Source of the DNA: Chitinophagales bacterium
GTDB lineage: Bacteria; Bacteroidota; Bacteroidia; Chitinophagales; JAUHXS01
Assembly: GCA_965213575.1 (NCBI GenBank)
Contig: CBDBZN010000006.1
Coordinates: 106,297 to 170,296, forward strand
Direction of reading: 5' to 3'
DNA: 64,000 nt
The translations under genes were made by a program, and so were the position numbers. This document shows, piece after piece, positions 14,681 through 29,212 of the stretch. Under the pieces are notes generated by a model. It was not told where the DNA came from and ran no database searches. It was given only the letters and a program-made list of their open reading frames with translations. Numbering within the stretch: position 1 is the first letter of the stretch; every line of letters starts with the position of its first letter.

Positions 14681-16150
14681 GTGAAAGTCAAGGGCTTAAA
14701 CATATGTAGTATATTTTTAATATTGCTTTTTGCTCGGTTTTTGCAAGCGGAGAACTTAGATGTTACCCTACCTGATAAGGCAACAGTTTTTATAGATTCG
14801 GGCAATCATATCTCCTTTCAGGAAGTTAGAAAACAAACATTTAGCCCGGCATCTAATGACGACTTCAATGCCGGCTTTACTAATTATATCTACTGGTATC
14901 ATTTTTTTTTATTAAATACACAAAAGGGGGAAATCCTTCAAATAGATAATCCTGAATTAGATTTTATAGAAGCTTATTTTGTTGATGATAAAGATAGTAT
15001 TATTCAATATCAACAAGCAGGTGCATTCAATGATTTTTCAAGCCGAATTTTAAAAAATAGAACGCCGTCCTTTAAAATTCTCGACGGCACCAGTCAAGTT
15101 TATTTGAAAGTTTTATCAGAAACCACATTAAACGTGCCTATTCGAATTAAAAGTCCGGACCAATATAGTAGAGACAATATATTTGGAATTATTGCTTTTA
15201 GTTTTTTGCATGCTATTATCTTGATCTTTTTCATATATAATCTGATTCTCTTTATCGCATTGAAGCGGGCTATATACGGCTATTACTCTTTGTATCTGGC
15301 TAGTATGTTTATGACCGGCTTATCAATTACAGGATTGGGGTATCAATTATTTTGGCCCTCCCATCCTTCATTTAACAGTTTTACTTCTATTTTTTTCGTA
15401 AGCAGTATGATGGTCAGTTTCTGTTTGTTTACTACTAGAATTTTAAATCTTAAAATATTTATGCCTATTTTATATAGATTATTTATCATTTTAGCTGCCA
15501 TAGGTCCATTAATAATAGTCGCTATTTTATTTTTATCACGATCGCTATTAATTCAGTTATTACATATTTTTCCGCTTATTGGGATGTTAATGGCAGTAAT
15601 GGGGGCTATTATTGGTATAGGAAGAGGCTATAAACCGGCACAGTTTTATTTGATGGGCTGGTCTGCTTTTTTTCTGGGAGCTACTCTGTTCCAATTAAGA
15701 GACTGGGGCCTGATTACTGATAATTTCCTTACAGCCAACTTTTCTTTCGTAGGTGCTGCCATTGAAGCTATATTCTTTTCCTATGGCATAGCCTTAAAAA
15801 TGAAAACATATCAAAAAGAGATTAATGATTCTAAGTCGAAAATTTCCGAATATGAAACAGAATTGGAATTGCTTAGAAAAGAATTAATAAAGCCGGATAG
15901 AAAGAAAACGGGAGGGCAAACCATTAATCAACAGAGGATCAATCAATACTTGATCAATCCCTTATCAGATAGAGAAGTAGAAGTGTTAACATTGATAGCG
16001 GAAGGTAAAACTAATAAGGAAGTAGCCAATTTATTATTTGTTTCTGTTAATACTATTAAAACCCACGTCAAAAAAATCTATGACAAATTAGATGTAAAAA
16101 ATAGAACAGAAGCTGTTACTAAAGCTAATTCACTAGAGTTGCTAGCTTGA
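14681..16150 (+). CDS. Membrane one-component regulator: 7TMR-DISM extracellular and 7TM domains, coiled coil, LuxR HTH
   Basis: Signal peptide, FNAGFT..YW..F, ~7 hydrophobic helices (YNLILF..., YLMGW, IEAIFFSYGIA), C-terminal LSDREVEVL...GKTNKEVA..LFVSVNTIKTH. Confidence 0.88.
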   Translation: MKVKGLNICSIFLILLFARFLQAENLDVTLPDKATVFIDSGNHISFQEVRKQTFSPASNDDFNAGFTNYIYWYHFFLLNTQKGEILQIDNPELDFIEAYFVDDKDSIIQYQQAGAFNDFSSRILKNRTPSFKILDGTSQVYLKVLSETTLNVPIRIKSPDQYSRDNIFGIIAFSFLHAIILIFFIYNLILFIALKRAIYGYYSLYLASMFMTGLSITGLGYQLFWPSHPSFNSFTSIFFVSSMMVSFCLFTTRILNLKIFMPILYRLFIILAAIGPLIIVAILFLSRSLLIQLLHIFPLIGMLMAVMGAIIGIGRGYKPAQFYLMGWSAFFLGATLFQLRDWGLITDNFLTANFSFVGAAIEAIFFSYGIALKMKTYQKEINDSKSKISEYETELELLRKELIKPDRKKTGGQTINQQRINQYLINPLSDREVEVLTLIAEGKTNKEVANLLFVSVNTIKTHVKKIYDKLDVKNRTEAVTKANSLELLA

Positions 16151-16651
16151 AAAAGTACCATAAATATCAATCTATCCTTACAAAAGCCCCTTCTGTAATC
16201 AGGTACAATTGATTCGAATTTTAGGAGCTTCCCACAAGGTACTTATATTGCCGGTGATTTGCTCTTCATCGATTAAATCATCCCGCTCATTTTTTCTTAC
16301 GTTAATTAAGGAAGATTAATAAACTGAGTGTGATTAGTAAAATAGATGTCTTTTTCATAATGTAGAATTAGATAAATTTTGAGGGTATTGCAGTAGGTGA
16401 TTAGATACTATATCAATAAAATTTTGCCACATCAAGTGATAAATGATATCTTAATAATGTTCTTTATCAGGTTAATGACCTGCTCGAATACCTTCTAAAA
16501 GCTATGCCACATCATGTGTTATCACCTGATAGCTAATAAATATAAGGTCAGATGATAAAATCCGACAAGGCGAAAATACATTCTACTACTACTTTCAGTT
16601 TTGCCTTCCATTTCCATTTCCACTCCTCAACTTTCCACTTTTTAAAATAAA

Positions 16652-16697
16652 TCACCCATTCGGGTGAGGGATAAAATTTATTCAAACCTTATCATTG
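16652..16697 (+). promoter_or_regulatory. Putative LuxR operator plus variant -7 box, unit 1
   Basis: TCACCC-ATTC-GGGTGA (16652-16667), 22 nt, TATCATTG (16690-16697). Confidence 0.7.
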
Positions 16698-16718
16698 TCT
16701 TTCACAAATGGTAAGAAA

Positions 16719-16943
16719 ATGGTAAAAATAGATGGATGTATTAAACACGATTTGTCAGCAAGAGAAGTGCAGGTTGTGTTGCTAATTGCTAAAGGTAAAA
16801 CCAATACTGAAATAGCAGATATCTTATTTATTTCTATTAATACCGTTAAAACTCATACTAAACATATATTCGAAAAACTTAGTGTTAAAAATCGCACAGA
16901 AGCTATTATGAAGTCTTTTTCTGAAGGGATTTTAGTGAGATAA
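16719..16943 (+). CDS. Stand-alone LuxR/GerE-type HTH regulator
   Basis: LSAREVQVVLLIAKGKTNTEIADILFISINTVKTH; ATG 16719 preferred because TTG 16695 overlaps the proposed -7 box. Confidence 0.85.
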   Translation: MVKIDGCIKHDLSAREVQVVLLIAKGKTNTEIADILFISINTVKTHTKHIFEKLSVKNRTEAIMKSFSEGILVR

Positions 16944-16953
16944 AAGATCAAAA

Positions 16954-16999
16954 TCACCCGAAGGGGTGAAGGAAACCAAGTTATCACCACCTAATATTG
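16954..16999 (+). promoter_or_regulatory. Putative LuxR operator plus variant -7 box, unit 2
   Basis: TCACCC-GAAG-GGGTGA (16954-16969), 22 nt, TAATATTG (16992-16999). Confidence 0.7.
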
Positions 17000-17025: not shown

Positions 17026-17271
17026 ATGAATAGAATTTTTACTCTTATTACTACCGGATTAATAAGCTTAACACTTACACTGGGTTTTGCTCAACAATTT
17101 AATGAAACACAAAAAATAACCGGTACAGGATTTGGACCGGCAAACACATCCTATTTTGGAACTAGCGTAGCTATTTCAGGGGATTATACCATTGTGGGAG
17201 CACCGGGATATGATTACTTCAGTACTTTAAATACCGGAGCAGCGTATATTCATGAAAAAAAACCATTTTAA
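17026..17271 (+). CDS. N-terminal fragment (signal peptide plus first FG-GAP blade) of the giant protein, cut off by frameshift at A8
   Basis: MNRIFTLITTGLISLTLTLGFAQQ...YFGTSVAISGDYTIVGAPG...GAAYIHEK, then stop after A8 at 17255-17262. Confidence 0.85.
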   Translation: MNRIFTLITTGLISLTLTLGFAQQFNETQKITGTGFGPANTSYFGTSVAISGDYTIVGAPGYDYFSTLNTGAAYIHEKKPF

Positions 17272-20200
17272 TGAATGGCAATTAGCAGAATTTTTAAGGC
17301 CTTCCAACTTAAGTGCTGATGATAGATTTGGTGCACAAGTAGCCATATCTGGGGATTATGCTGTGGTGACAGCTCCTGAACATTCAAAAGATGCATCCGG
17401 CAACAATAGTTTAAATGATGCAGGAGCAGCATATATTTATGAGCGAGATGGTACCGGTGATTGGAATATGGTACAAAAGATTGTGGCTTCCGATCGTGCT
17501 TCAGGAGAGTTTTTTGGAGAAGCACTTGCATTAGACGGGGATAGGATTATAATTGGCTCATATCTTGCAGATGCTGTTTATATATTTGAGCGTAATGGTT
17601 CTGGAGTTTGGATAGAAGAGCAAATATTATTATCGAATGATATAGTAGGGGGCGATTTCTTCGGTTTTTCAGTAGCTATAAATGGCGATTTTGCCGTAGT
17701 AGGAGCAAGTCGAGAAAATGCTACATTGTCAGGATTTAGTTCAGTAAGTAGTGCAGGGTCAGCTTATATATTTGAACGAAACGGATCAGGAGTTTGGAAT
17801 CAAATACAAAAAATAGTGGCTTCAGACAGAGAATTGAATGATGAGTTTGGAACAAGCGTAGCGATTGATGGGGATTACCTAATAGTAGGAGCAACACAGG
17901 AAGATCATAATACAGCGGGTCTTGATTTTAGAAATAGAGCCGGTTCTGCTTATATATTTGAAAAGGATGGTTCAGGTACGTGGAATGAAGTACAAAAAGT
18001 CACAGAATTTCTTAGAGCAGCAGGTTCAGAATTTGGACATTCTGTTTCGCTAAAAGGAGATAGAGTAATTGTGACAGAAGCTTCTCTTTATGCAGGGGCA
18101 TCTGTATTTGAACGAGATGGATCAGATAATTGGAACTATCAAGAAAAATTGATCAATGAAGGCTACACTTATAATGATGCATCTCAGAGCCCCGTGGCTT
18201 TATCTAGCGAGGGAATGGCTATTGTTGGTATCAATTTAGAAGGAGAAGACGAATTCAGTAATAGAACTTTTGAAGGAGCGGCATATATTTATACCTATTG
18301 CGAGCCAACTTCTTCTACTATTAACCTCACTGTTTGCGAGCCTTACTTAGCCCCCTCACAAACACAAACATTTACTGTTTCAGGAAATTATACAGATGTT
18401 ATTCCAAATACTAGGGGGTGTGATAGTACCATCTCAATTAACCTTATCGTGAATCAAAACCCACCGACTATTAATCCGGCTGGTCCTTTAGTAATCTGCT
18501 CGGGAATTAATGAAACTCTATCTATCCCTGCCGTAGGAGGGGCAAGCTATTGTTATTTTAAAAATGAACAATGGGATAATGTGGGAAGCAGTGTTTCCAG
18601 TGGTGTAGGTCAATATACTACCTTGACTTTTGATGTAAATGATATACCATATGTGGTATTTAGAGATGAAGATGAAAATTTCACGCCGAGCGTTAAAAAA
18701 TTTGATGGTAATAATTGGGTTTTTGTAGGAGCCCCACGTAGTATTGAAATCAACCCGATAGGCAATGATTTGGATATGGCTATAAGCCAGTCAAATACAC
18801 CATATGTAACATATAGAGCGGGCTTCTCTAGTGGTTTGTATAGGGCAACGGTAAAAAGATTTGATGGAACAGATTGGATAAAAATAGGTTCTAATGAAGC
18901 TTCCACTGGTGAGGTGCGTGATGTTAATATAGCGTTTGGCGAATATGAAACGCCCTATATCGCATATAAAGATGTAGACAATGGAGACAAAGCAACTGTA
19001 ATGAAATACGAAGCCGGTTTCTGGGAACCTGTAGGGAATATTGCTTTTAGCTCCGGATCAATAACCGGCCTAAGCTTAGTAGTAAATAATAATAATGTAC
19101 CTTATGTAGCTTTTTCTGATGACAACAACAGTAATAAAGCCACCGTGATGAAGTATAATGGTACTACCTGGGTTAACGTTGGTGCTGCGGGTTTTACTTC
19201 AGGTGCTTCTTATGTTAATAAACTTGCACTTAATAATTCCGGCACTTTACATATGGCTTCTTATGATGTAGCGAATGGTAATAAAGCAACGGTCTATAAA
19301 TTCAACGGCAGTAGTTGGGTTACTGTTGGCACTGCGGGTTTTTCAGCAGGTATGGCCAATGATATTGACTTTGGCATAAATGAAGCAGATGAGCTATATG
19401 TTGCCTATCGAGATAATGCAAATAGCAATAAACTTACCGTAATGACTTATGATGGAATTGATTGGGTTCCTGCCGGTGATATTGCTTTTAGTGAAGGTGA
19501 TGTAAATACACCAAGCATTGCCTTTGGAGCATATAATAAACCTTATGTTGCCTATAGGAATTTGGCTAACGGAAATAAAATATCAGTAGAGAAAATAGAG
19601 CCTGTTTGTATAGGTAATTCAAATTCTTTAGTGATTAACACAACAGGTACTTATAATGTGGAGGTAACCGCTTCAGATGGCTGTATCAGCTATGCTGCCA
19701 ACTCAGTAACAGTCACCAATGGTACTAATACCACTGCTACTATTTCACCAACGGTTTGTGAAAGCTATACCGTGCCAAGTGGTGATGAAACATATAATAT
19801 CAGTGGAAATTATACAGACACAATTTTAAATACTTCAGGATGTGACAGTGTATTGACCATTAATCTTACTATTTTAAATAGTTCTTCAGCCACTCTAAAC
19901 ATTGATACCTGTGCAGCTTCTTATACTGTGCCAAGTGGCGATAAAACGTATACGGTTAACGGCACCTATTCCGATACAATTTCAAACGCAGTAGGATGCG
20001 ACAGTATCTTAACCATCAATCTTACTATTAATAATAATTCATTTACTAATCAGTATGAAACTACCGTTGATAGTTTTATGTGGTCATCTAACGGCATCAC
20101 TTACTACGAATCAGGAGTGTATACCAACGTTTTGCCGAATAGTGTGGGTTGCGATTCTGTCATTACACTTTACTTAACTATTGAAGAAGAATCTTTTTAT

Positions 20201-23200
20201 AATGAAATACAAAAGATTGTAGCGGCTGATAGAACAGCAGACGATAATTTTGGACAAGCCGTAGATGTGGATGGATCATTTGCAATTGTTGGTGCACATA
20301 GAGATGATTATTTCTCAGGTGGATTCAAAACGGATGTAGGATCAGCTTATATCTTTGAAAAAGGGTTAGATGGAACTTGGACTCAAGCCCAGAAATTAAC
20401 TCCTTCTGATGTACCTACAAATACCGATTACTTCGGCTATTCAGTTGCTATTTCAGGAAACTATGCAGTGATAGGAGCTTTTTTAGAAGATGAAGGGGCT
20501 ACAGGCTTTGGAACAGTTAATGATGCGGGTTCGGCTTATGTTTTTGAAAGAGATGTGTTTTCTAATACGTGGAGCCAAACGGCTAAAATTGTGGCTTTTG
20601 ATAGAGCTACAGGTGATTACTTTGGCTCGTCAGTTGATATATATGGCGACTATATAGTAGTTGGAGCTCCGTCAGAAGATGAAGATGCAGGTGGAGGAAA
20701 TACCCTGTCAGGTGCAGGTTCTGTATATATCTTTAAACGATCAGGTGCTAATTGGAACTTTACTACTAAATTAGTTCATTCAGATAGAGATGCAAGTGAT
20801 GGATTTGGTGCTGAATTGTCTTTATTTGCAAACAAATTAATTGTTGGTGTTTCTGGTCAAGATTTGGATGCATCCGGTGGTAACTCTCTGACAAGTGCAG
20901 GTGCAGCATATATTTTTGAACGCGATGGGTTAGACAATTGGAGCGAAATGCAAAAATTGGTAGCTAGTGAGCGTAAAAGCTCTGACTTTTTCGGGGCTTC
21001 GGTAAGCATTTCCGATTCTTTCGCCGTTGTGGGAGCCTCCGGGGAAGATGAAGATGCCAGTGGAGGAAATACATTATCTAGTGCAGGTGCACTATATACT
21101 TTTAAACTAAGTGCTTCCAATGTATGGTCTCAAACTCAAAAACTAGTTGCTTCTGATAGAGCAGCGTTTGATGTATTGGGTAAATCTGTAAAGATTGAAG
21201 GTGATTGGATTCTTGCAGGTGTTCCTTTTGAAGATCACGATACCTCCGGATTAAATCAGTTATCAAGTTCCGGATCTGTATATGTATTCAATAAAGATAT
21301 TTTAGGTGCTTGGAGTGAAACTCAAAAATTAGTTGCATCCGATAGAGCCATTAATGATAATTATGGGTTCCCGGTTGCCATATCCGGTGCCTACTTATTC
21401 TCAGCAGCTAAGTTAGAAGATGAAGATGAAAACGATGCCAATACCAAAACGGATGCGGGCTCAGTTTATATTTTAGGGAGATGCGGAACAGCTTTCTCTT
21501 TCATCAATGAAACGGCATGTAATTTTTATATCAGCCCTTCCGGGAAAAAGTTTAACACTAATGGTATTTATGAAGATACTGTTACCACACAATTAGGTTG
21601 TGATAGTATTATTACAATAACACTAGATATTTTAAATAATACATTCAGCCCTAGCCCAATTACGGTTTCATCTTGTTATCAATATACGTGGCCATTAAAT
21701 GGCTTAACTTATACAACCAGCGGCACGTATAAAACAGCTTTAACAAATAGTATGGGTTGTGATTCTATAATTACTTTAGATTTAACTATAACAAGTGATG
21801 AAATTCCTTTTGAGCAAATAACTAGTTTTTCAGATAGTACAGCGTATGACTACCTCGGTTCATCCGTTGCAATTGATGGTGAATTTATGGTGGCAGGTGC
21901 CCCGGGAGAAGATCAGGATGTCAATGGGAATAATACAATAAATGGAGCAGGGTCTGCCTTCATGTATCAAAAAGGGTTGACAGGGGAATGGGAGTTTGCC
22001 CAAAAGATTGTTGCTTCTGATAGAGCAGCAAATGACGAGTTTGGAACAAGTGTAGATATTCATGGAGATTATATGATCGTGGGTGTTCCATTCGAAGATC
22101 ATGATGAAGCAGGAGGTAGCTTTATGACTTCTGCTGGATCAGCTTATATTTTTGAAAAAGATGGAAGTGGTAATTGGAGTCAAGTGCAAAAGATTGTGTC
22201 GGCTGATAGGGCTATTAATGATCAGTTTGGAATTTCTGTTGCTATCTACGGCAACTATGCTTTTGTTGGGGCAACCGGACAAGGTTATGACGAAAATGGA
22301 GGTAATTTTTTAAGCTTGGCAGGAGCTGCTTACATCTTTGAACGAGATGGAGGGGGTAATTGGACTCAAATCAAAAAGGTAGTTGCTACAGATCGTGTGA
22401 ACAATGATAATTTTGGAGGAGCTATTGATGTATATAAAGACTATGCAATTATAAGTGCAGCCGGACAAGGTTATGACGAAAATGGAGGGAACTTGGTTTT
22501 TGGTGCTGGAGCTGTGTATGCTTATAAATTTGATTCAGAATGGCGAGAATTCCAAAAGATCGTTTCTTCTGAAAGGTTTTTTGGTGACGCTTTCGGAACA
22601 TCTGTATCAATTGCTGGAAACTATTTCGTAGCTAGTGCTAGAGGACAAGATAGGGATGAAAATGGAGGCAATTTTTTAAGCTTGGCAGGAGCTGCCTATA
22701 TTTTTGAATATGATAATACAGGAATATGGAGTGAAATGCAGAAAATTGTGGCTTCCGATAGAGCTGCAAATGATGGATTCGGAAATTCAGTAGCTATTTC
22801 AGGAAACCAAGTGGTGGTGGGTGCCACCAGTGAGGATGAAGATGAAAATGGTAATAATACCTTAAATGCTTCAGGTTCAGCTTATTATTTTGAAACCGAA
22901 GGTACTATTTGGACAGAGAAGAAAAAATTGGTAAGTAACGACCGCGAAATTCAAGATGGATACGGTAGTGCAGTTGCTATATCTGAAGGTACTCTAGCAG
23001 TAGGAGCATCTGGAGATCGGCTGGGATCATTATTGTATGGTGCAGGTGCGGTTTATATATTAGACAGAGTTACTCCTCAAAGTAATATTACTGAAGTAGC
23101 TTGTGGTTCATACACCACTCCTTCCGGTAATCAGACCTATTCAGCTAGCGGTATTTATACAGATATCCTACCAAGTGCATCGGGTTGCGATAGTGTCATT

Positions 23201-26200
23201 ATTATTGACCTTACTATTAATAATAACTCATTTAACACATTAAATGTAGATGCATGCGATAGTTATACAGTTCCTTCCGGAGATGAGACATATACTGCGA
23301 GCGGAACATATATGGATACTATACCTAATGCAGTTGGGTGCGATAGCATACTGACAATCAACTTAAATTACCTGGGTAATAGCTCTTCTTCTTTTGTCTC
23401 TGTTACAGAATGTGATGAGTATATTTTCAATGGAGAAATATATGCGACAACTGGAGTTTATGATATCGTAATTCCTAACTCAGCAGGGTGTGATAGTAAT
23501 ATTACTTTAGATTTAACTATAAACTATAGTAATGCCACCTATGTTGAAGCAGTTAAGGCTGTTGCCTCAGACCGTGCTATCGATGATGAATTTGGGCATT
23601 CCGTAGCAATAAGCGGACAATATGCGGTAGTTGGAGCAAGGTATGAAGACGAGGATGAAAGTGGTAACAATACGCTATCCACCGCTGGGTCAGTATATAT
23701 ATTTAAGCAAGATGTAAACGGAGACTGGAATGAAGTCCAAAAAATAGTCGCTTCTGATCGTGCCACTGGAGATAACTTTGGTCAAGATGTGGCTATTGAT
23801 GGAGACTATATAGTTGTTGGTGCGTCTTTTGAAGGATCGCCTAAACCAGGTGCTGCATATATCTTCCAAAAAGACGGAGGCGGTATTTGGAACGAGGTTC
23901 AAAAACTTCAAGTTTCTGGTGAGTTTAATTATGCTGAATTTGGACATTCGGTAGATATAGATAATGATTTAATAGTAGTGGGTGCGAGATATGCAGGACT
24001 AGACGCTGGAGGTGCCAATTCAATGACCTCTGCAGGTGCTGCTTATGTATTCAAAAGAGATGGTGGTGGTACATGGAGTGAAGTTCAAAAGCTTGTTGCT
24101 TCTGACAGGGCTAATTTTGATAATCTTGGTACAGACGTTACTATATCTCAAGATCGCATAGCAGTTGGTGGACCATTCAATGATTTGGATGAAAATGGTT
24201 TAAATTCATTGTCAAACTCGGGAGGTGTTTATATTTTCGAAGAAGATGGTGGTGGCACATGGACTCAAATTCAAAAAGTAGTGGCTTCTGATAGAGATAA
24301 TGGGGATAACTTTGGATATTCACTTTCGGTAAGTGGTAATACTTTGCTAGTAGGTGCATACAATGAAAAAGAAGATCAGCTAGGAGGTAATACATTGAAT
24401 GCAGCAGGTTCGGCATATATTTTTGAAAGAGATGGCGGAGGCATTTGGGCTCAAACACAAAAGGTTGTAGCTGAAGATAGAGCAAGTAATGACTATTTTG
24501 GTTATAGCGTGAGTATGTCAGGCAGTTTCGGATTAATTGGTGCATACCGAAGTAAGCGTGATGCAGAAGGCTTAAACGCTTTTTCTTCAGCTGGAGCGGC
24601 ATATATTTTTAAGAAAAATATTGATGGTGGATGGTCTCAGTTGGAGAAAGTTGTTCCATCTGATAGAGCTAGTAATGATGAGTTTGCTAAATCAGTTGCC
24701 ATTTCGGGAGCTAATTTTATAGCCGGAGCAAGCTTTGAGGATGAAAATGAAACTGGTACAAGTATGCTCAGTAAAGCAGGCTCTGTTTATTTCTTTGAGC
24801 AAGAATTAATTGCAGTTCCCGTAGCTGTAAGTGCTTGTGAAAGCTATACCGTACCATCAGGAGATGAAACGTATACGGTGAGTGGGATGTATATGGATAC
24901 GATCCAAACTATTTCAGGTTGTGATAGTTTGCTCGTAATTGATGTTACGATCAATAATCATTCTTCTGCTACTATTAATCCATCTGTTTGTGGTAGCTAT
25001 ACTGTTCCATCAGGAGATGAAATTTATACAGTTAGTGGTACCTATAATGATACCATTGCTAATACTGCAGGGTGTGATAGCTTGTTAACGATTAACTTAA
25101 CCATTAATGGCAACAGCTCTTCTACAGAAGATACAACTGTATGTGATAGCTACACTTGGAATGGAGGCACGTATACTGTTTCCGGAACATATTATGACAC
25201 GATTCCTACCGGAGCGGCTTGTGATAGCTTCTTGACATTAAACCTGGTAGTTAATTATAGCAGTTCTTCCACAGAAACAATTACCGCTTGTGATAGCTAT
25301 ATGTGGAATGGAATGACTTTTAACTCATCCGGAACTTATAGAGATACTATTCCAAATGGAGTGAATTGTGATAGCTTTATGACATTAAATCTGACGATTA
25401 ACAATAGCACCTCAGCTTCAATTAGTCCTACTGCTTGTGAATCTTATACCGTTCCATCAGGAGATGAAACTTATTCGGTAAGCGGAATGTATTCTGATAC
25501 GATACCTAATGCTGCAAACTGTGATAGTATTATTACGATTAATCTTACTATAAACAATAACAGTTCCTCATCAGAGACAGAAACCGCTTGTGAAAGTTAT
25601 ATATGGAATGGCATGACTTTCACCTCAAGTGGGACTTATTTTGACACCATACCGAATACTATTAGTTGCGATAGTTTTATGACGTTGAATCTGACGATTA
25701 ATAATAATAGTTCTTCGACTGAAACGGTTTCTGCTTGCGGAAATTATGATTGGAACGGAACAAACTATACTGTAAGTGGTGTGTATCGAGATACGATACC
25801 GAATGCTATAAACTGTGATAGTTTCATGACACTAAACTTAACGATAAGTGATATCACGACAGCTACCATTAGTCCAGCCGCTTGTGAAACATACACTGTT
25901 CCTTCCGGTGATGAAACATATATAGTTAGTGGTAACTATATGGACACGATTCTTAATGTTGGAGGATGTGATAGTATTATCACCATTAACTTGACGATTA
26001 ATAATCATACTTCTGCAACGCTTAATGAAAGTGTATGTAACATCTATACCGTTCCTTCCGGCGATGAAACATATACGATGGATGGAACTTACTTGGATAC
26101 CATAGCAAATACTGCAGGTTGTGATAGTATCTTAACGATCAACTTAACCATACTGGGAACGAGTTCTTCGACAGAAGATACGATGGTTTGTGATAGTTAT

Positions 26201-27580
26201 ATTTGGAATGGGAATACCTATACCGTTTCCGGTACTTATTACGATACCATCCCGACAGGAGCGGCTTGTGATAGCTTCTTGACATTGAACTTAGTAGTAA
26301 ATAATTCTACTAATGATACGGTTGAAGTGGTTGTTTGTCCGGGAACGGATTATGTATTACCGGGAGGAGCAACTGTAAATACAGCAGGTTTCTATAGAGA
26401 TACATTGATGACGGCTAGTAACTGTGATAGTATTATCAATACAGACTTTAAATTTGCTCCAATATATGATGAAGATGTTGATGCTGCTATTTGTCAAGGT
26501 GAAAGTTATACCTTGCCAAGTGGATTAGTCGTAAACACAGGAGGGGTTTATCGTGATACGTTATTGACGAATAATAATTGCGATAGCATCACCAATACTA
26601 CGTTGATTGTGAACCCAACTTATATCATTAATATTTCTGATACTGTTTGTCAAGGGCAAGGGTATGAGCTGCCGAGAGGAGAGGTTGTGTTTATTGATAG
26701 TATTTATACTGATACATTAATGACTGAAGCAGGTTGTGATAGTATCATTATTGTAGATCTTAGTGTAGACTCATCCGGATTGGTTACGAGTGAATTTATG
26801 TCATTCTGTGAAGGTGAAACCTACACATTACCATGGGGAGACGTAATTGATTCAGCAGGTATCTTTATTGATCCGACTATTGTGGGTTGTGATACCTTTA
26901 CCCAATATGTAGTTACTGTTAATCCGGTGTATAACATCATCGATTTTATTGTCATCTGTGCAGGTGACAGTATTGAATTGTTTGGTGAGTTTGTTTCAAA
27001 GCCTGATATTTATGAGGCTTCATTTACTACTTCAGATGGGTGCGATAGTAATATAACGATTGAAGTAATATATGATAATTTCGCTGGAGCTGATCAGGCC
27101 CTTACGATCTGCGACACCTTTACTAATTTCGATCTTTCGACAGTAATTACTGCTGATGCCGATACCAATGGTATTTGGATTGATGTAAATGGTACAGGAG
27201 CAATTAGCGGATCTATGTTTGATGCTTCAGGAGTTACAGCCGGGACTTATACAGTTAAATATGCGACGCCTGCCACAGGAAGTTGTGAGAATGATACGGC
27301 TACCTTTACAGTAACTGTTCAGCCTTGTCTAAATTCCGGTATTGTTGCTGTTGAAATACCAAATATTGAGGTATTCCCTAATCCTGCTAAAGACAAGCTG
27401 AATATTAAAAGTAATACTCAGATGAATATCCTTTCAGTATATAATACGTTAGGTCAGCTTTATCTGGAATACAATGCAGTTCCACGTACGTTAGATGTAT
27501 CTAATTGGATTCCGGGAGTGTATTTTATAGAAATAACTCATGCTTCAGGTGTTCAGCAGATTAAGGTTGTAAAACATTAG
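17252..27580 (+). CDS. Giant FG-GAP multi-propeller surface protein with Cys-pair stalk repeats and T9SS type A CTD (body of frameshifted gene)
   Basis: Many FG.SVAI.G...VGA...GSAYIFE blades in four clusters, one different propeller, ~24 C..Y...G.Y.DT....GCDS units, C-terminal VFPNPA...GVYFI. Confidence 0.9.
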   Translation: MKKNHFNEWQLAEFLRPSNLSADDRFGAQVAISGDYAVVTAPEHSKDASGNNSLNDAGAAYIYERDGTGDWNMVQKIVASDRASGEFFGEALALDGDRIIIGSYLADAVYIFERNGSGVWIEEQILLSNDIVGGDFFGFSVAINGDFAVVGASRENATLSGFSSVSSAGSAYIFERNGSGVWNQIQKIVASDRELNDEFGTSVAIDGDYLIVGATQEDHNTAGLDFRNRAGSAYIFEKDGSGTWNEVQKVTEFLRAAGSEFGHSVSLKGDRVIVTEASLYAGASVFERDGSDNWNYQEKLINEGYTYNDASQSPVALSSEGMAIVGINLEGEDEFSNRTFEGAAYIYTYCEPTSSTINLTVCEPYLAPSQTQTFTVSGNYTDVIPNTRGCDSTISINLIVNQNPPTINPAGPLVICSGINETLSIPAVGGASYCYFKNEQWDNVGSSVSSGVGQYTTLTFDVNDIPYVVFRDEDENFTPSVKKFDGNNWVFVGAPRSIEINPIGNDLDMAISQSNTPYVTYRAGFSSGLYRATVKRFDGTDWIKIGSNEASTGEVRDVNIAFGEYETPYIAYKDVDNGDKATVMKYEAGFWEPVGNIAFSSGSITGLSLVVNNNNVPYVAFSDDNNSNKATVMKYNGTTWVNVGAAGFTSGASYVNKLALNNSGTLHMASYDVANGNKATVYKFNGSSWVTVGTAGFSAGMANDIDFGINEADELYVAYRDNANSNKLTVMTYDGIDWVPAGDIAFSEGDVNTPSIAFGAYNKPYVAYRNLANGNKISVEKIEPVCIGNSNSLVINTTGTYNVEVTASDGCISYAANSVTVTNGTNTTATISPTVCESYTVPSGDETYNISGNYTDTILNTSGCDSVLTINLTILNSSSATLNIDTCAASYTVPSGDKTYTVNGTYSDTISNAVGCDSILTINLTINNNSFTNQYETTVDSFMWSSNGITYYESGVYTNVLPNSVGCDSVITLYLTIEEESFYNEIQKIVAADRTADDNFGQAVDVDGSFAIVGAHRDDYFSGGFKTDVGSAYIFEKGLDGTWTQAQKLTPSDVPTNTDYFGYSVAISGNYAVIGAFLEDEGATGFGTVNDAGSAYVFERDVFSNTWSQTAKIVAFDRATGDYFGSSVDIYGDYIVVGAPSEDEDAGGGNTLSGAGSVYIFKRSGANWNFTTKLVHSDRDASDGFGAELSLFANKLIVGVSGQDLDASGGNSLTSAGAAYIFERDGLDNWSEMQKLVASERKSSDFFGASVSISDSFAVVGASGEDEDASGGNTLSSAGALYTFKLSASNVWSQTQKLVASDRAAFDVLGKSVKIEGDWILAGVPFEDHDTSGLNQLSSSGSVYVFNKDILGAWSETQKLVASDRAINDNYGFPVAISGAYLFSAAKLEDEDENDANTKTDAGSVYILGRCGTAFSFINETACNFYISPSGKKFNTNGIYEDTVTTQLGCDSIITITLDILNNTFSPSPITVSSCYQYTWPLNGLTYTTSGTYKTALTNSMGCDSIITLDLTITSDEIPFEQITSFSDSTAYDYLGSSVAIDGEFMVAGAPGEDQDVNGNNTINGAGSAFMYQKGLTGEWEFAQKIVASDRAANDEFGTSVDIHGDYMIVGVPFEDHDEAGGSFMTSAGSAYIFEKDGSGNWSQVQKIVSADRAINDQFGISVAIYGNYAFVGATGQGYDENGGNFLSLAGAAYIFERDGGGNWTQIKKVVATDRVNNDNFGGAIDVYKDYAIISAAGQGYDENGGNLVFGAGAVYAYKFDSEWREFQKIVSSERFFGDAFGTSVSIAGNYFVASARGQDRDENGGNFLSLAGAAYIFEYDNTGIWSEMQKIVASDRAANDGFGNSVAISGNQVVVGATSEDEDENGNNTLNASGSAYYFETEGTIWTEKKKLVSNDREIQDGYGSAVAISEGTLAVGASGDRLGSLLYGAGAVYILDRVTPQSNITEVACGSYTTPSGNQTYSASGIYTDILPSASGCDSVIIIDLTINNNSFNTLNVDACDSYTVPSGDETYTASGTYMDTIPNAVGCDSILTINLNYLGNSSSSFVSVTECDEYIFNGEIYATTGVYDIVIPNSAGCDSNITLDLTINYSNATYVEAVKAVASDRAIDDEFGHSVAISGQYAVVGARYEDEDESGNNTLSTAGSVYIFKQDVNGDWNEVQKIVASDRATGDNFGQDVAIDGDYIVVGASFEGSPKPGAAYIFQKDGGGIWNEVQKLQVSGEFNYAEFGHSVDIDNDLIVVGARYAGLDAGGANSMTSAGAAYVFKRDGGGTWSEVQKLVASDRANFDNLGTDVTISQDRIAVGGPFNDLDENGLNSLSNSGGVYIFEEDGGGTWTQIQKVVASDRDNGDNFGYSLSVSGNTLLVGAYNEKEDQLGGNTLNAAGSAYIFERDGGGIWAQTQKVVAEDRASNDYFGYSVSMSGSFGLIGAYRSKRDAEGLNAFSSAGAAYIFKKNIDGGWSQLEKVVPSDRASNDEFAKSVAISGANFIAGASFEDENETGTSMLSKAGSVYFFEQELIAVPVAVSACESYTVPSGDETYTVSGMYMDTIQTISGCDSLLVIDVTINNHSSATINPSVCGSYTVPSGDEIYTVSGTYNDTIANTAGCDSLLTINLTINGNSSSTEDTTVCDSYTWNGGTYTVSGTYYDTIPTGAACDSFLTLNLVVNYSSSSTETITACDSYMWNGMTFNSSGTYRDTIPNGVNCDSFMTLNLTINNSTSASISPTACESYTVPSGDETYSVSGMYSDTIPNAANCDSIITINLTINNNSSSSETETACESYIWNGMTFTSSGTYFDTIPNTISCDSFMTLNLTINNNSSSTETVSACGNYDWNGTNYTVSGVYRDTIPNAINCDSFMTLNLTISDITTATISPAACETYTVPSGDETYIVSGNYMDTILNVGGCDSIITINLTINNHTSATLNESVCNIYTVPSGDETYTMDGTYLDTIANTAGCDSILTINLTILGTSSSTEDTMVCDSYIWNGNTYTVSGTYYDTIPTGAACDSFLTLNLVVNNSTNDTVEVVVCPGTDYVLPGGATVNTAGFYRDTLMTASNCDSIINTDFKFAPIYDEDVDAAICQGESYTLPSGLVVNTGGVYRDTLLTNNNCDSITNTTLIVNPTYIINISDTVCQGQGYELPRGEVVFIDSIYTDTLMTEAGCDSIIIVDLSVDSSGLVTSEFMSFCEGETYTLPWGDVIDSAGIFIDPTIVGCDTFTQYVVTVNPVYNIIDFIVICAGDSIELFGEFVSKPDIYEASFTTSDGCDSNITIEVIYDNFAGADQALTICDTFTNFDLSTVITADADTNGIWIDVNGTGAISGSMFDASGVTAGTYTVKYATPATGSCENDTATFTVTVQPCLNSGIVAVEIPNIEVFPNPAKDKLNIKSNTQMNILSVYNTLGQLYLEYNAVPRTLDVSNWIPGVYFIEITHASGVQQIKVVKH

Positions 27581-27820: not shown

Positions 27821-29212
27821 TTATTCATTATCCACCGGTTCAGCAGCAGGCTCTTCTTCAAGAGATTTTTTATCGTATTTACGTTTATTAGTGCTCTTGC
27901 CACCATCCATTTTCGGGTCAAATAGTCCCATTTCCGGCTTACGTTTGCTTCTTTTCCTTACTTTATTAGCTTTATAACCAAATATTTCTTTTTTACCTGT
28001 ATTATTTGATACTTTATAAGACTGTCCGGCTGTTTCATATTCCTTTGCTGTTCTAGCATCTACTTCCGTTGGTTCCATATTTCTCATATTCACAGGATCT
28101 CCAAAAATGCCACCCTTTTTATTTCTACTGACTTTGTAAGATTGTCCGCTCGTCTCGTATTCTTTCGCAACACTAGCTTTAACTTGTGTCGGCTGTCTAT
28201 TGTTTCCACTAACATCTACACCGAAAATTCCTTTCTTTTGTTGTTTGTCAACCTTATAGGATTGCCCGGCTGTTTCGTATTGCTTAGCAATACTTGCTGA
28301 TACTTTGCCGGGTTTTGTGGGAGCAGTATTACCCGTTTCTCCAAAAATCCCTTGTTTTCCTACACCGGTAGTATAATAAGATTGAGTGGAAGTTTCATAT
28401 TCTTTAGCAGTAGACTTTTTAACTGTATTTGGCGTTCTATCTATAGGCTTATTACTTTCTCCAAAAATTCCCTTTTTACTGGCCTCATTTACATAATAGG
28501 ATTGCCCTCCGCCTTCATACTCTTTTGCTATTTTTGCATCAACTTTATTAGGCGTAGTATTTACCTTGCCGGCATGTTCACCAAAAATCCCTTGCTTTTT
28601 TATTTCTTTTACATGATAAGATTGGCTTGCTGTTTCATATTGTTTCGCCACCTTCGCAGCTATCGTCGGAGGGTCTTTATCAGGATTTTTGACTTCTACG
28701 CCGAAGATGCCACTTTTTTTAGCCTTTTCTACTTTATAAGATTGAGTACTTGTTTCATATTTTTTTGCAATAGAGGGATTTATCTCACCGCCTTCAACCT
28801 CAACCTTTCCTATGTTGCCAAAAATCCCTTGCTTTAGTTCTTTTTCAACTTTATAAGACTGTCCGGCTGTTTCATGCTCTTTCGCAACTTTCGCTTTAAC
28901 TGGTACCGGTTCCATATAAGGATATTTGACTTGTGAACCGAAAATTCCATTTTTTTCTGCAGGCTTAGCTTTAAAAGATTGAGTGGAAGTTTCATGCTCT
29001 TTTGCAGTGCTTGCATTAGTTTTGGTAGGATTTTTAATGCCGGTTGGGTTAAAGGTTTTTAATTTGGCCGGTTTAGTGCCCGTTTTTATCTTTGAGCCTT
29101 TATCTCTATTCGTACTGTTAGGAATTGGATTTTGATCTACCTGAGCAAATATCAAACATGAAAGAGCTGTATAGAATAGGAAAAATATAATTAAAAGGTA
29201 TTTTTTACTCAT
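27821..29212 (-). CDS. Exported Lys-rich protein with nine ~40-aa tandem repeats
   Basis: Signal peptide (cleavage near IFA-Q); repeat AK.YET..QSY.V.....K.GIFG........P..V.A..; 120-nt periodicity visible in DNA. Confidence 0.85.
   Translation of the reverse strand: MSKKYLLIIFFLFYTALSCLIFAQVDQNPIPNSTNRDKGSKIKTGTKPAKLKTFNPTGIKNPTKTNASTAKEHETSTQSFKAKPAEKNGIFGSQVKYPYMEPVPVKAKVAKEHETAGQSYKVEKELKQGIFGNIGKVEVEGGEINPSIAKKYETSTQSYKVEKAKKSGIFGVEVKNPDKDPPTIAAKVAKQYETASQSYHVKEIKKQGIFGEHAGKVNTTPNKVDAKIAKEYEGGGQSYYVNEASKKGIFGESNKPIDRTPNTVKKSTAKEYETSTQSYYTTGVGKQGIFGETGNTAPTKPGKVSASIAKQYETAGQSYKVDKQQKKGIFGVDVSGNNRQPTQVKASVAKEYETSGQSYKVSRNKKGGIFGDPVNMRNMEPTEVDARTAKEYETAGQSYKVSNNTGKKEIFGYKANKVRKRSKRKPEMGLFDPKMDGGKSTNKRKYDKKSLEEEPAAEPVDNE

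Follow-up and report, generated by a model that had tools for sequence, protein, structure and literature searches.

The locus described here lies in a 64,000-nucleotide stretch of a Chitinophagales genome (the window), where three plus-strand genes follow one another: a membrane sensor-regulator, a solo GerE/LuxR helix-turn-helix (HTH) protein and a giant secreted FG-GAP-repeat protein. A palindrome and a -7 box precede each of the last two genes, and the features are arranged as follows.

14681-16150, plus strand: sensor-regulator gene, 489 aa, with 7TMR-DISMED2, 7TMR-DISM 7TM and C-terminal GerE/LuxR HTH domains
16151-16651, no strand: non-coding spacer (501 bp) that separates operator 1 from the sensor gene
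16648-16651 (TAAA) and 16950-16953 (AAAA), plus strand: A-rich tracts directly 5' of the two operators
16652-16667, plus strand: operator 1, TCACCCATTCGGGTGA (TCACCC-ATTC-GGGTGA), predicted to span -50 to -35 of the solo-regulator promoter
16690-16697, plus strand: -7 box of promoter 1, TATCATTG, predicted start at about 16702-16704
16719-16943, plus strand: solo GerE/LuxR HTH gene, 74 aa from its ATG (PF00196, 4.9e-21), without a sensor domain
16954-16969, plus strand: operator 2, TCACCCGAAGGGGTGA (TCACCC-GAAG-GGGTGA), predicted position -50 to -35 in the giant-gene promoter
16992-16999, plus strand: -7 box of promoter 2, TAATATTG, predicted start at about 17004
17026-27580, plus strand: gene of a giant secreted protein with FG-GAP repeats and a T9SS C-terminal sorting domain, split over the frames 17026-17271 and 17252-27580

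The sensor combines an extracellular 7TMR-DISMED2 domain with a 7TMR-DISM_7TM domain, the composition of a 7TMR-DISM receptor, and its Pfam scores are 2.6e-21 for PF07696, 5.5e-35 for PF07695 and 1.6e-19 for PF00196. Its recognition helix reads S-V-N-T-I-K-T-H and that of the solo protein S-I-N-T-V-K-T-H, with 38 of 70 residues identical between the two HTH domains. Pfam searches showed no receiver domain in either local GerE protein and no autoinducer domain at the locus. Close orthologs of the solo protein were not found, the best match being 69% (54 residues) among the genome records and 63% among those from metagenomes, and a copy of its gene is absent from the same-genus genome G001. An alternative TTG start of the solo gene at 16695 would fall 5' of the predicted transcription start. 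Its predicted leader contains a tandem 11-nt duplication (AAATGGTAAGA/AAATGGTAAAA, 16706-16727), the first copy of which makes a 5-codon mini-ORF (ATG at 16708) that overlaps the start codon of the solo gene, itself located in the second copy.

The distance of 501 nt from the sensor stop codon to operator 1 compares with 1-60 nt in most other loci, and the spacer has no counterpart in the G001 arrangement. A search of 16151-16651 for a hidden gene remnant found all six frames closed, and its matches to other contigs were short and weak. Within the spacer, 16418-16441 and 16498-16521 form a direct repeat of 24 nt that includes TGCCACATCA; the two copies are 79% identical and lie 80 nt apart. 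The stretch at about 16504-16595 weakly resembles contigs C31, C20 and C7 of this genome. This repeat and the similar stretch may represent a small repeated element or a further binding site.

The giant gene starts with a signal peptide, and both of its frame pieces carry FG-GAP_2. In the long piece, FG-GAP_2 matches over 25 stretches (E 1.3e-287), together with a Por_Secre_tail domain (1.5e-11). The two frames meet in an A8 run at 17255-17262, and a similar FG-GAP protein from G001 is continuous across the corresponding junction. The frame split could reflect slippage phase variation, a programmed shift or a homopolymer assembly error. The only public contigs covering the A8 stretch break inside the run, one ending at 17261 and the next starting at 17256, at a depth of about 4.

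An earlier reading, made from the sequence alone, had described two identical promoter architectures in front of the solo and giant genes, and direct inspection agrees: two palindromes with perfect arms each stand 22 nt before a TAnnATTG box that is followed directly by T. Both are perfect 6-N4-6 dyads, within the size of ~16-20 bp suited to an HTH dimer, and operator 2 starts 10 nt past the stop codon of the solo gene. The spacers between palindrome and box (16668-16689 and 16970-16991) are exactly 22 nt each and unrelated in sequence. The A-tract that had been noted before each palindrome is present at both, as TAAA at operator 1 and AAAA at operator 2. The two -7 boxes do share a common variant, as had been proposed, with the correction that this variant departs from the consensus: both fit TAnnTTTG at 7 of 8 positions, A replacing T at position 5.

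The predicted promoter coordinates follow from work on Flavobacterium psychrophilum, in which the sigma-A box TAnnTTTG is mapped at -12 to -5 (PMC9723704). With a box at this position and a gap of 22 nt, the palindromes would span -50 to -35 and be centred on -42.5, and transcription is predicted to start near 16702 and 17004, as the sequence-only reading had expected. The fifth base 3' of the box is A in 17 of the 27 composite sites described below, which fits a promoter position. Since a centre at -42.5 is the position of LuxR-type and other class II activators, we read both sites as activator operators. A -33 TTTG is absent from both window promoters, whose spacers open with GGGA and AGGA, and none of the 27 composite sites shows TTTG at the corresponding place. 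This absence is weak support for activator dependence, because the -33 TTTG was not identifiable by global RNA-seq in F. johnsoniae (PMC7366714).

In order to assess how exceptional the palindromes are, we counted them in the window and in the whole genome (2,674,222 nt, 39 contigs, 34% G+C). With up to one mismatch, the window contains 2 copies against 0.04 expected, a number reached in 0 of 100 shuffles, and the exact palindrome occurs twice genome-wide, both times in the window. A relaxed genome scan, in which the palindrome could carry as many as 2 mismatches and stand 10-36 nt before a TAnn[AT]TTG box, returned 4 matches, namely the window pair (0 mismatches, gap 22) and two 2-mismatch sites with gaps of 21 and 24. 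The scan for the composite motif that the sequence-only reading had suggested therefore defines a regulon of just the two window promoters, with no further members in this genome even when 2 mismatches are permitted. The operator-promoter pair is genuine: it far exceeds the chance expectation and, in this genome, is confined to this locus. Chance and a duplication remnant were ruled out by the shuffle statistics and the differing spacers. An alternative sigma-factor promoter with GGGTGA as its -35 element was also set aside, as the downstream box is a sigma-A -7 box and the upstream element a full palindrome.

The same architecture recurs in other Bacteroidota. Among 41 relatives, the window's own genome counted, the bare palindrome occurs in 8 and the reversed control in 2. 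We then used the composite pattern palindrome-N{10,36}-TAnnTTTG, with the reversed pattern as control. A sample of 401 genomes from the order gave 19 matches in 13 genomes, 15 with a gap of 22, 4 with a gap of 23 and none with any other gap (control, 1). A second sample, 401 genomes from the phylum, contributed 6 matches not seen before, all in other orders and classes; 4 were at gap 22, 2 at gap 23 and again none elsewhere (control, 2). Pooled, 19 matches have gap 22 and 6 have gap 23, leaving the remaining 25 of the 27 permitted gaps unused, and the 25 matches have unrelated spacers and differ in their downstream genes. The suggestion that identical spacing between different spacer sequences reflects functional constraint is strongly supported, all 25 composite matches in the two 401-genome samples using gap 22 or 23.

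Boxes of the form TAnnVTTG, with a non-consensus position 5, stand at gap 22-23 in 3 of 10 matches outside the window; the other matches are scattered at gaps of 10, 13, 15, 15, 18, 28 and 35. Variant boxes in the conserved architecture (gap 22 or 23) include TAATATTG in G092:C11 (gap 22) and TAACATTG in G114. The window's variant box serves this architecture elsewhere, less often than the consensus. The bases before the palindrome are also biased, with A at positions -4 to -1 in 19, 22, 16 and 20 of the 27 composite sites, and T-richness at the mirror positions after the palindrome was not seen across these sites.

These results bear on whether the palindromes serve activation or repression. 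As repressor operators, the sites would let the solo or sensor HTH cover -50 to -35 and block RNA polymerase, so that the solo gene would be under negative autoregulation and the giant gene off until a signal arrives. An operator covering the -35 region can indeed occlude polymerase, sensor-less solo HTH proteins could serve as constitutive brakes, GerE of Bacillus subtilis reportedly represses as well as activates, and the linkage and covariation evidence presented below fits repression equally well. However, repressors in general tolerate variable positions, and 25 of 25 sites in unrelated promoters at gap 22-23 display the stereospecific phasing expected of an activator that contacts polymerase. 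The asymmetric A-tract on the promoter-distal side likewise suggests a built promoter architecture, and we consider repression unlikely. The view of the sequence-only reading that the operator occupies the place of the -33 element in an activator-dependent promoter thus gains support from the fixed spacing as regards position, with activation itself suggested by geometry.

The closest counterpart to the window is the cassette of G001, which consists of a 487-aa 7TMR-DISM-LuxR gene, 20 nt past its stop codon, TCACCCATATGGGTGA, 22 nt, TAGGTTTG and an FG-GAP gene. Its arrangement is the same as that of the window but without the solo gene. In G001 and G026, the palindrome begins about 40 nt past the GerE domain. 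Four loci of one genus (L040-L043, from G178, G329, G372 and G228) show an imperfect second copy (…CCC-N4-GGGTGA) about 24 nt 5' of the operator, and their module is placed between a divergent pair of TPR protein and response regulator on one side and an esterase with a T9SS sorting domain on the other.

The palindrome is linked to one type of GerE/LuxR HTH. A PF00196 gene is found no further than 3.3 kb from 10 of the 19 order sites, in genomes that hold only 3-39 such genes each. The linked regulators comprise receiver-GerE response regulators (G026, G341 and four kin genomes of one genus, in which the linked TPR protein and response regulator are divergent), a 7TMR-DISM protein (G001) and others. 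We aligned the HTH signatures of 11 linked and 35 unlinked GerE domains. The signature S-x-N-T-[VIL]-K-[TR]-H ... RT.A is present in 10 of the 11 linked proteins, the sole exception being itself the gene downstream of a site, and the majority of unlinked GerE proteins in these genomes instead read [RK]-T-V-[DE]-[ST]-H-R. Both window proteins show the linked signature, as NTIKTH in the sensor and NTVKTH in the solo protein.

Loci were additionally collected by this HTH type. Eighty genome loci from many phyla (444,022 nt) contained 9 exact palindromes and 19 with up to one mismatch, and 13 of the 16 site-bearing loci had the site 1-60 nt past the stop codon. Eighty metagenome loci (270,807 nt), an independent set that likewise spans many phyla, contained 8 exact and 19 with up to one mismatch, 18 of the 19 sites lying at -16 to +92 of the stop. 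The counts overstate independence because many of the compared loci are kin, and six metagenome loci share one identical site. The regulators in these loci include response regulators (some with a receiver domain), MalT-like STAND proteins and solos. Proteins with K-V-H seldom have a palindrome near the stop (1 of 18 genome loci, 0 of 18 metagenome loci), and the after-stop placement rule is therefore not general. Three Bacteroidales loci (L130, L164 and L155) encode MalT-like STAND regulators of about 900 aa (AAA + TPR_MalT + GerE) with a palindrome about 40 nt past the stop and an extra TCACCC half-site 6 nt upstream; a T-run follows in L130 and L164, and the site at these MalT-like loci may be terminator and operator at once.

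A second solo gene with a site of its own was found at G341:C24. This protein has an NTVKTH helix, and its ATG is preceded by TCACCCTTTCAGGTGA (one mismatch), 22 nt and TAGTTTTG. A comparable site was seen upstream of none of 17 other solo GerE genes, all of other helix types. On the basis of the G341:C24 arrangement, an autoregulated solo would not be unique to the window.

Across these loci, the half-site varied with the recognition helix of the adjacent protein, as listed here by helix type.

K-T-H: TCACCC-N4-GGGTGA, at many loci
K-K-H: GTACCC-N4-GGGTAC, at 3 of 6 loci
N-T-L-R-T-H: TCACCA-N4-TGGTGA, at 3 of 4 genome loci and 5 more in the metagenome set
K-Y-H: CTACCC-N4-GGGTGG, at L123 and a G001 paralog (there 22 nt before a -7-like box)
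K-[FY]-H: direct repeats CTACCC-N5-CTACCC, at 3 loci (L098, L119 and L126)
T-T-V-K-T-H: TCATCC-N4-GGATGA, at a G001 paralog

The two G001 paralogs in this list, both of the 7TMR-DISM-LuxR type (L068, G001:C2:174513-175400; L070, G001:C18:130461-131400), have the variant palindromes CTACCC-AAAT-GGGTGG and TCATCC-TTTT-GGATGA, which match the helices NTVKYH and TTVKTH, with a signal-peptide gene next. The direct repeats suggest that the K-[FY]-H subgroup binds head-to-tail.

This covariation also bears on the possibility that the palindromes are real operators bound by a factor encoded elsewhere, the adjoining LuxR genes being co-located by descent only. Nine of the 19 order sites lack a GerE gene within this 3.3-kb distance, as such a factor would allow, although two of these are on contigs of about 2 kb. 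Against it, the half-site bases covary with the recognition helix of the adjacent protein in several independent lineages, and the only two sites in this genome flank a GerE gene. Moreover, BldM, a protein of the same HTH family, footprints on an identical sequence (PMC4125116). We regard a distant factor as improbable.

The palindromes could also act as RNA hairpins, that is, as intrinsic terminators or structures at the ends of minus-strand or read-through transcripts, instead of protein sites. Both window sites scored as minus-strand terminator-like, with a 6-bp stem, T-rich tails (TTTTGATCTT and TTTATTTTAA) and a predicted folding energy of about -10 to -12 kcal/mol, and in L023, L024, L026, L130 and L164 a palindrome followed by a T-run resembles a real terminator. 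However, the nearest minus-strand gene to the right is about 10 kb away (27821-29212), and no plus-strand T-run follows either window palindrome. A terminator needs no fixed stem, yet this stem is constant across phyla, changes with the recognition helix and stands 22-23 nt before a -7 box on the plus strand. A hairpin function for these sites is thus barely credible.

We conclude that the palindromes are probably operators for dimers of GerE/LuxR HTH proteins with the signature S-x-N-T-[VI]-K-T-H, that the local sensor and solo proteins are the likely binders, and that binding would lead to class-II-type activation of the solo and giant genes. The motif, its uniqueness in the genome, the conserved geometry, the linkage to an HTH type and the covariation of helix and half-site are directly observed. 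From these we infer which proteins bind, that they activate and do not repress, where transcription starts and what the solo protein does. The sensor is a candidate binder of both operators, and sensor and solo fit this role equally well. In the proposed mechanism, a signal at the extracellular 7TMR-DISMED2 domain would cause the sensor HTH to bind both operators, and this binding would switch on the solo HTH gene and the giant FG-GAP/T9SS gene. The solo HTH, which lacks a sensor domain and is predicted to share the sensor's specificity, would next occupy its own promoter as well as that of the giant gene, thereby acting as positive feedback and as a soluble amplifier.

We put forward a broader reading tentatively, as somewhat less than an even prospect. 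It would see a cross-phylum, cis-encoded recognition code of the S-x-N-T-V-K-x-H GerE/LuxR subfamily, with the operator usually no more than about 60 nt past the regulator stop and with the residue between K and H setting the outer bases (T for TCACCC, K for GTACCC, Y for CTACCC). In Bacteroidota, the operator would belong to an obligate promoter module centred on -42.5. In the window, this module would then be duplicated around a sensor-less solo HTH and, together with the 7TMR-DISM sensor, make up a self-latching bistable switch for a giant T9SS adhesin whose frame is also gated by the A8 tract.

If the proposed mechanism is true, the operator-N22/23-TAnnTTTG rule would predict direct targets of this class of LuxR-type regulators phylum-wide, many of them T9SS cargo, and the amino-acid-to-base recognition code would be testable across phyla. 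The locus would additionally provide a compact natural sensor-amplifier-output cassette controlling a giant adhesin, and an inducible promoter design that could be carried over into genetic tools for Flavobacteriia-like bacteria. A recognition code valid across phyla and a feedback latch through the solo HTH would, if confirmed, add to the interest of the locus.

Transcription-factor sites and activator-dependent promoters of Bacteroidota are poorly charted outside a few model systems, and no 7TMR-DISM sensor with LuxR-type output has, to our knowledge, been characterised. A literature search, which covered articles outside their supplementary tables, likewise found no description of the motif in Bacteroidota or of such a sensor. 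The accessible part of a paper on P. gingivalis CdhR gives no binding motif (PMC11018363), and a preprint on F. johnsoniae zorbing proved unrelated.

Several characterised regulators share parts of the arrangement. NarL of Escherichia coli, which has a GerE-type HTH, recognises 7-2-7 sites, 16-bp inverted repeats with ACCC...GGGT whose placement around promoters is variable. In these sites, the distance between the ACCC cores differs by 2 bp from that in the window operators. GerE of B. subtilis regulates sporulation and recognises a different sequence. As a 74-aa stand-alone HTH (PDB 1fse), it is a solo protein like that of the window, and its sequence match to the latter (E 6.4e-08) is more distant than the match of LiaR/VraR. 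The solved structure closest to the solo protein is the DNA-binding domain of Enterococcus LiaR (4wt0, E 6.6e-16), and LiaR/VraR proteins of Enterococcus and Staphylococcus (PDB 4wt0, 5hev and 7ve4) match it with E 6.6e-16 to 6.3e-13. Their recognition helix, K-T-V-K-T-H, is nearly identical to N-T-V-K-T-H in the window solo. Unlike the window proteins, LiaR/VraR are receiver-domain response regulators of cell-envelope stress in Firmicutes.

The predicted promoter geometry resembles that of LuxR and TraR. These activators have a C-terminal GerE/LuxR HTH and act at activator-dependent promoters, where a dyad operator near -42.5 replaces or overlaps the -35 element, and the C-terminal domain of LuxR alone activates transcription. 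Their lux-box operators are 20 bp long, their sensors are N-terminal domains that bind acyl-homoserine lactones, and their promoters are of the sigma-70 -35/-10 type. In contrast, the window has a 16-bp 6-4-6 operator, a Bacteroidota sigma-A -7 box and no autoinducer domain, and because this domain is lacking, the system is not a quorum-sensing LuxR system.

The operator sequence itself has a counterpart in Streptomyces venezuelae, where, as the available text of the report states, ChIP-seq motif finding and DNase I footprinting showed that a BldM homodimer binds TCACcCgnncGgGTGA (PMC4125116). As given in that text, the BldM Group I operator is the same 16-bp palindrome as in the window, with identical arms. 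The proteins differ, BldM being portrayed there as an actinobacterial orphan, atypical NarL/FixJ-type response regulator of development and the window candidates being a 7TMR-DISM sensor and a solo HTH. The same text describes no fixed distance of the BldM operator to a -7 box (PMC4125116), unlike the window architecture. As the local GerE proteins are without a receiver domain, the window system is not of the BldM type. Taken together, it appears to act like a LuxR-type class II promoter that uses the BldM operator sequence.
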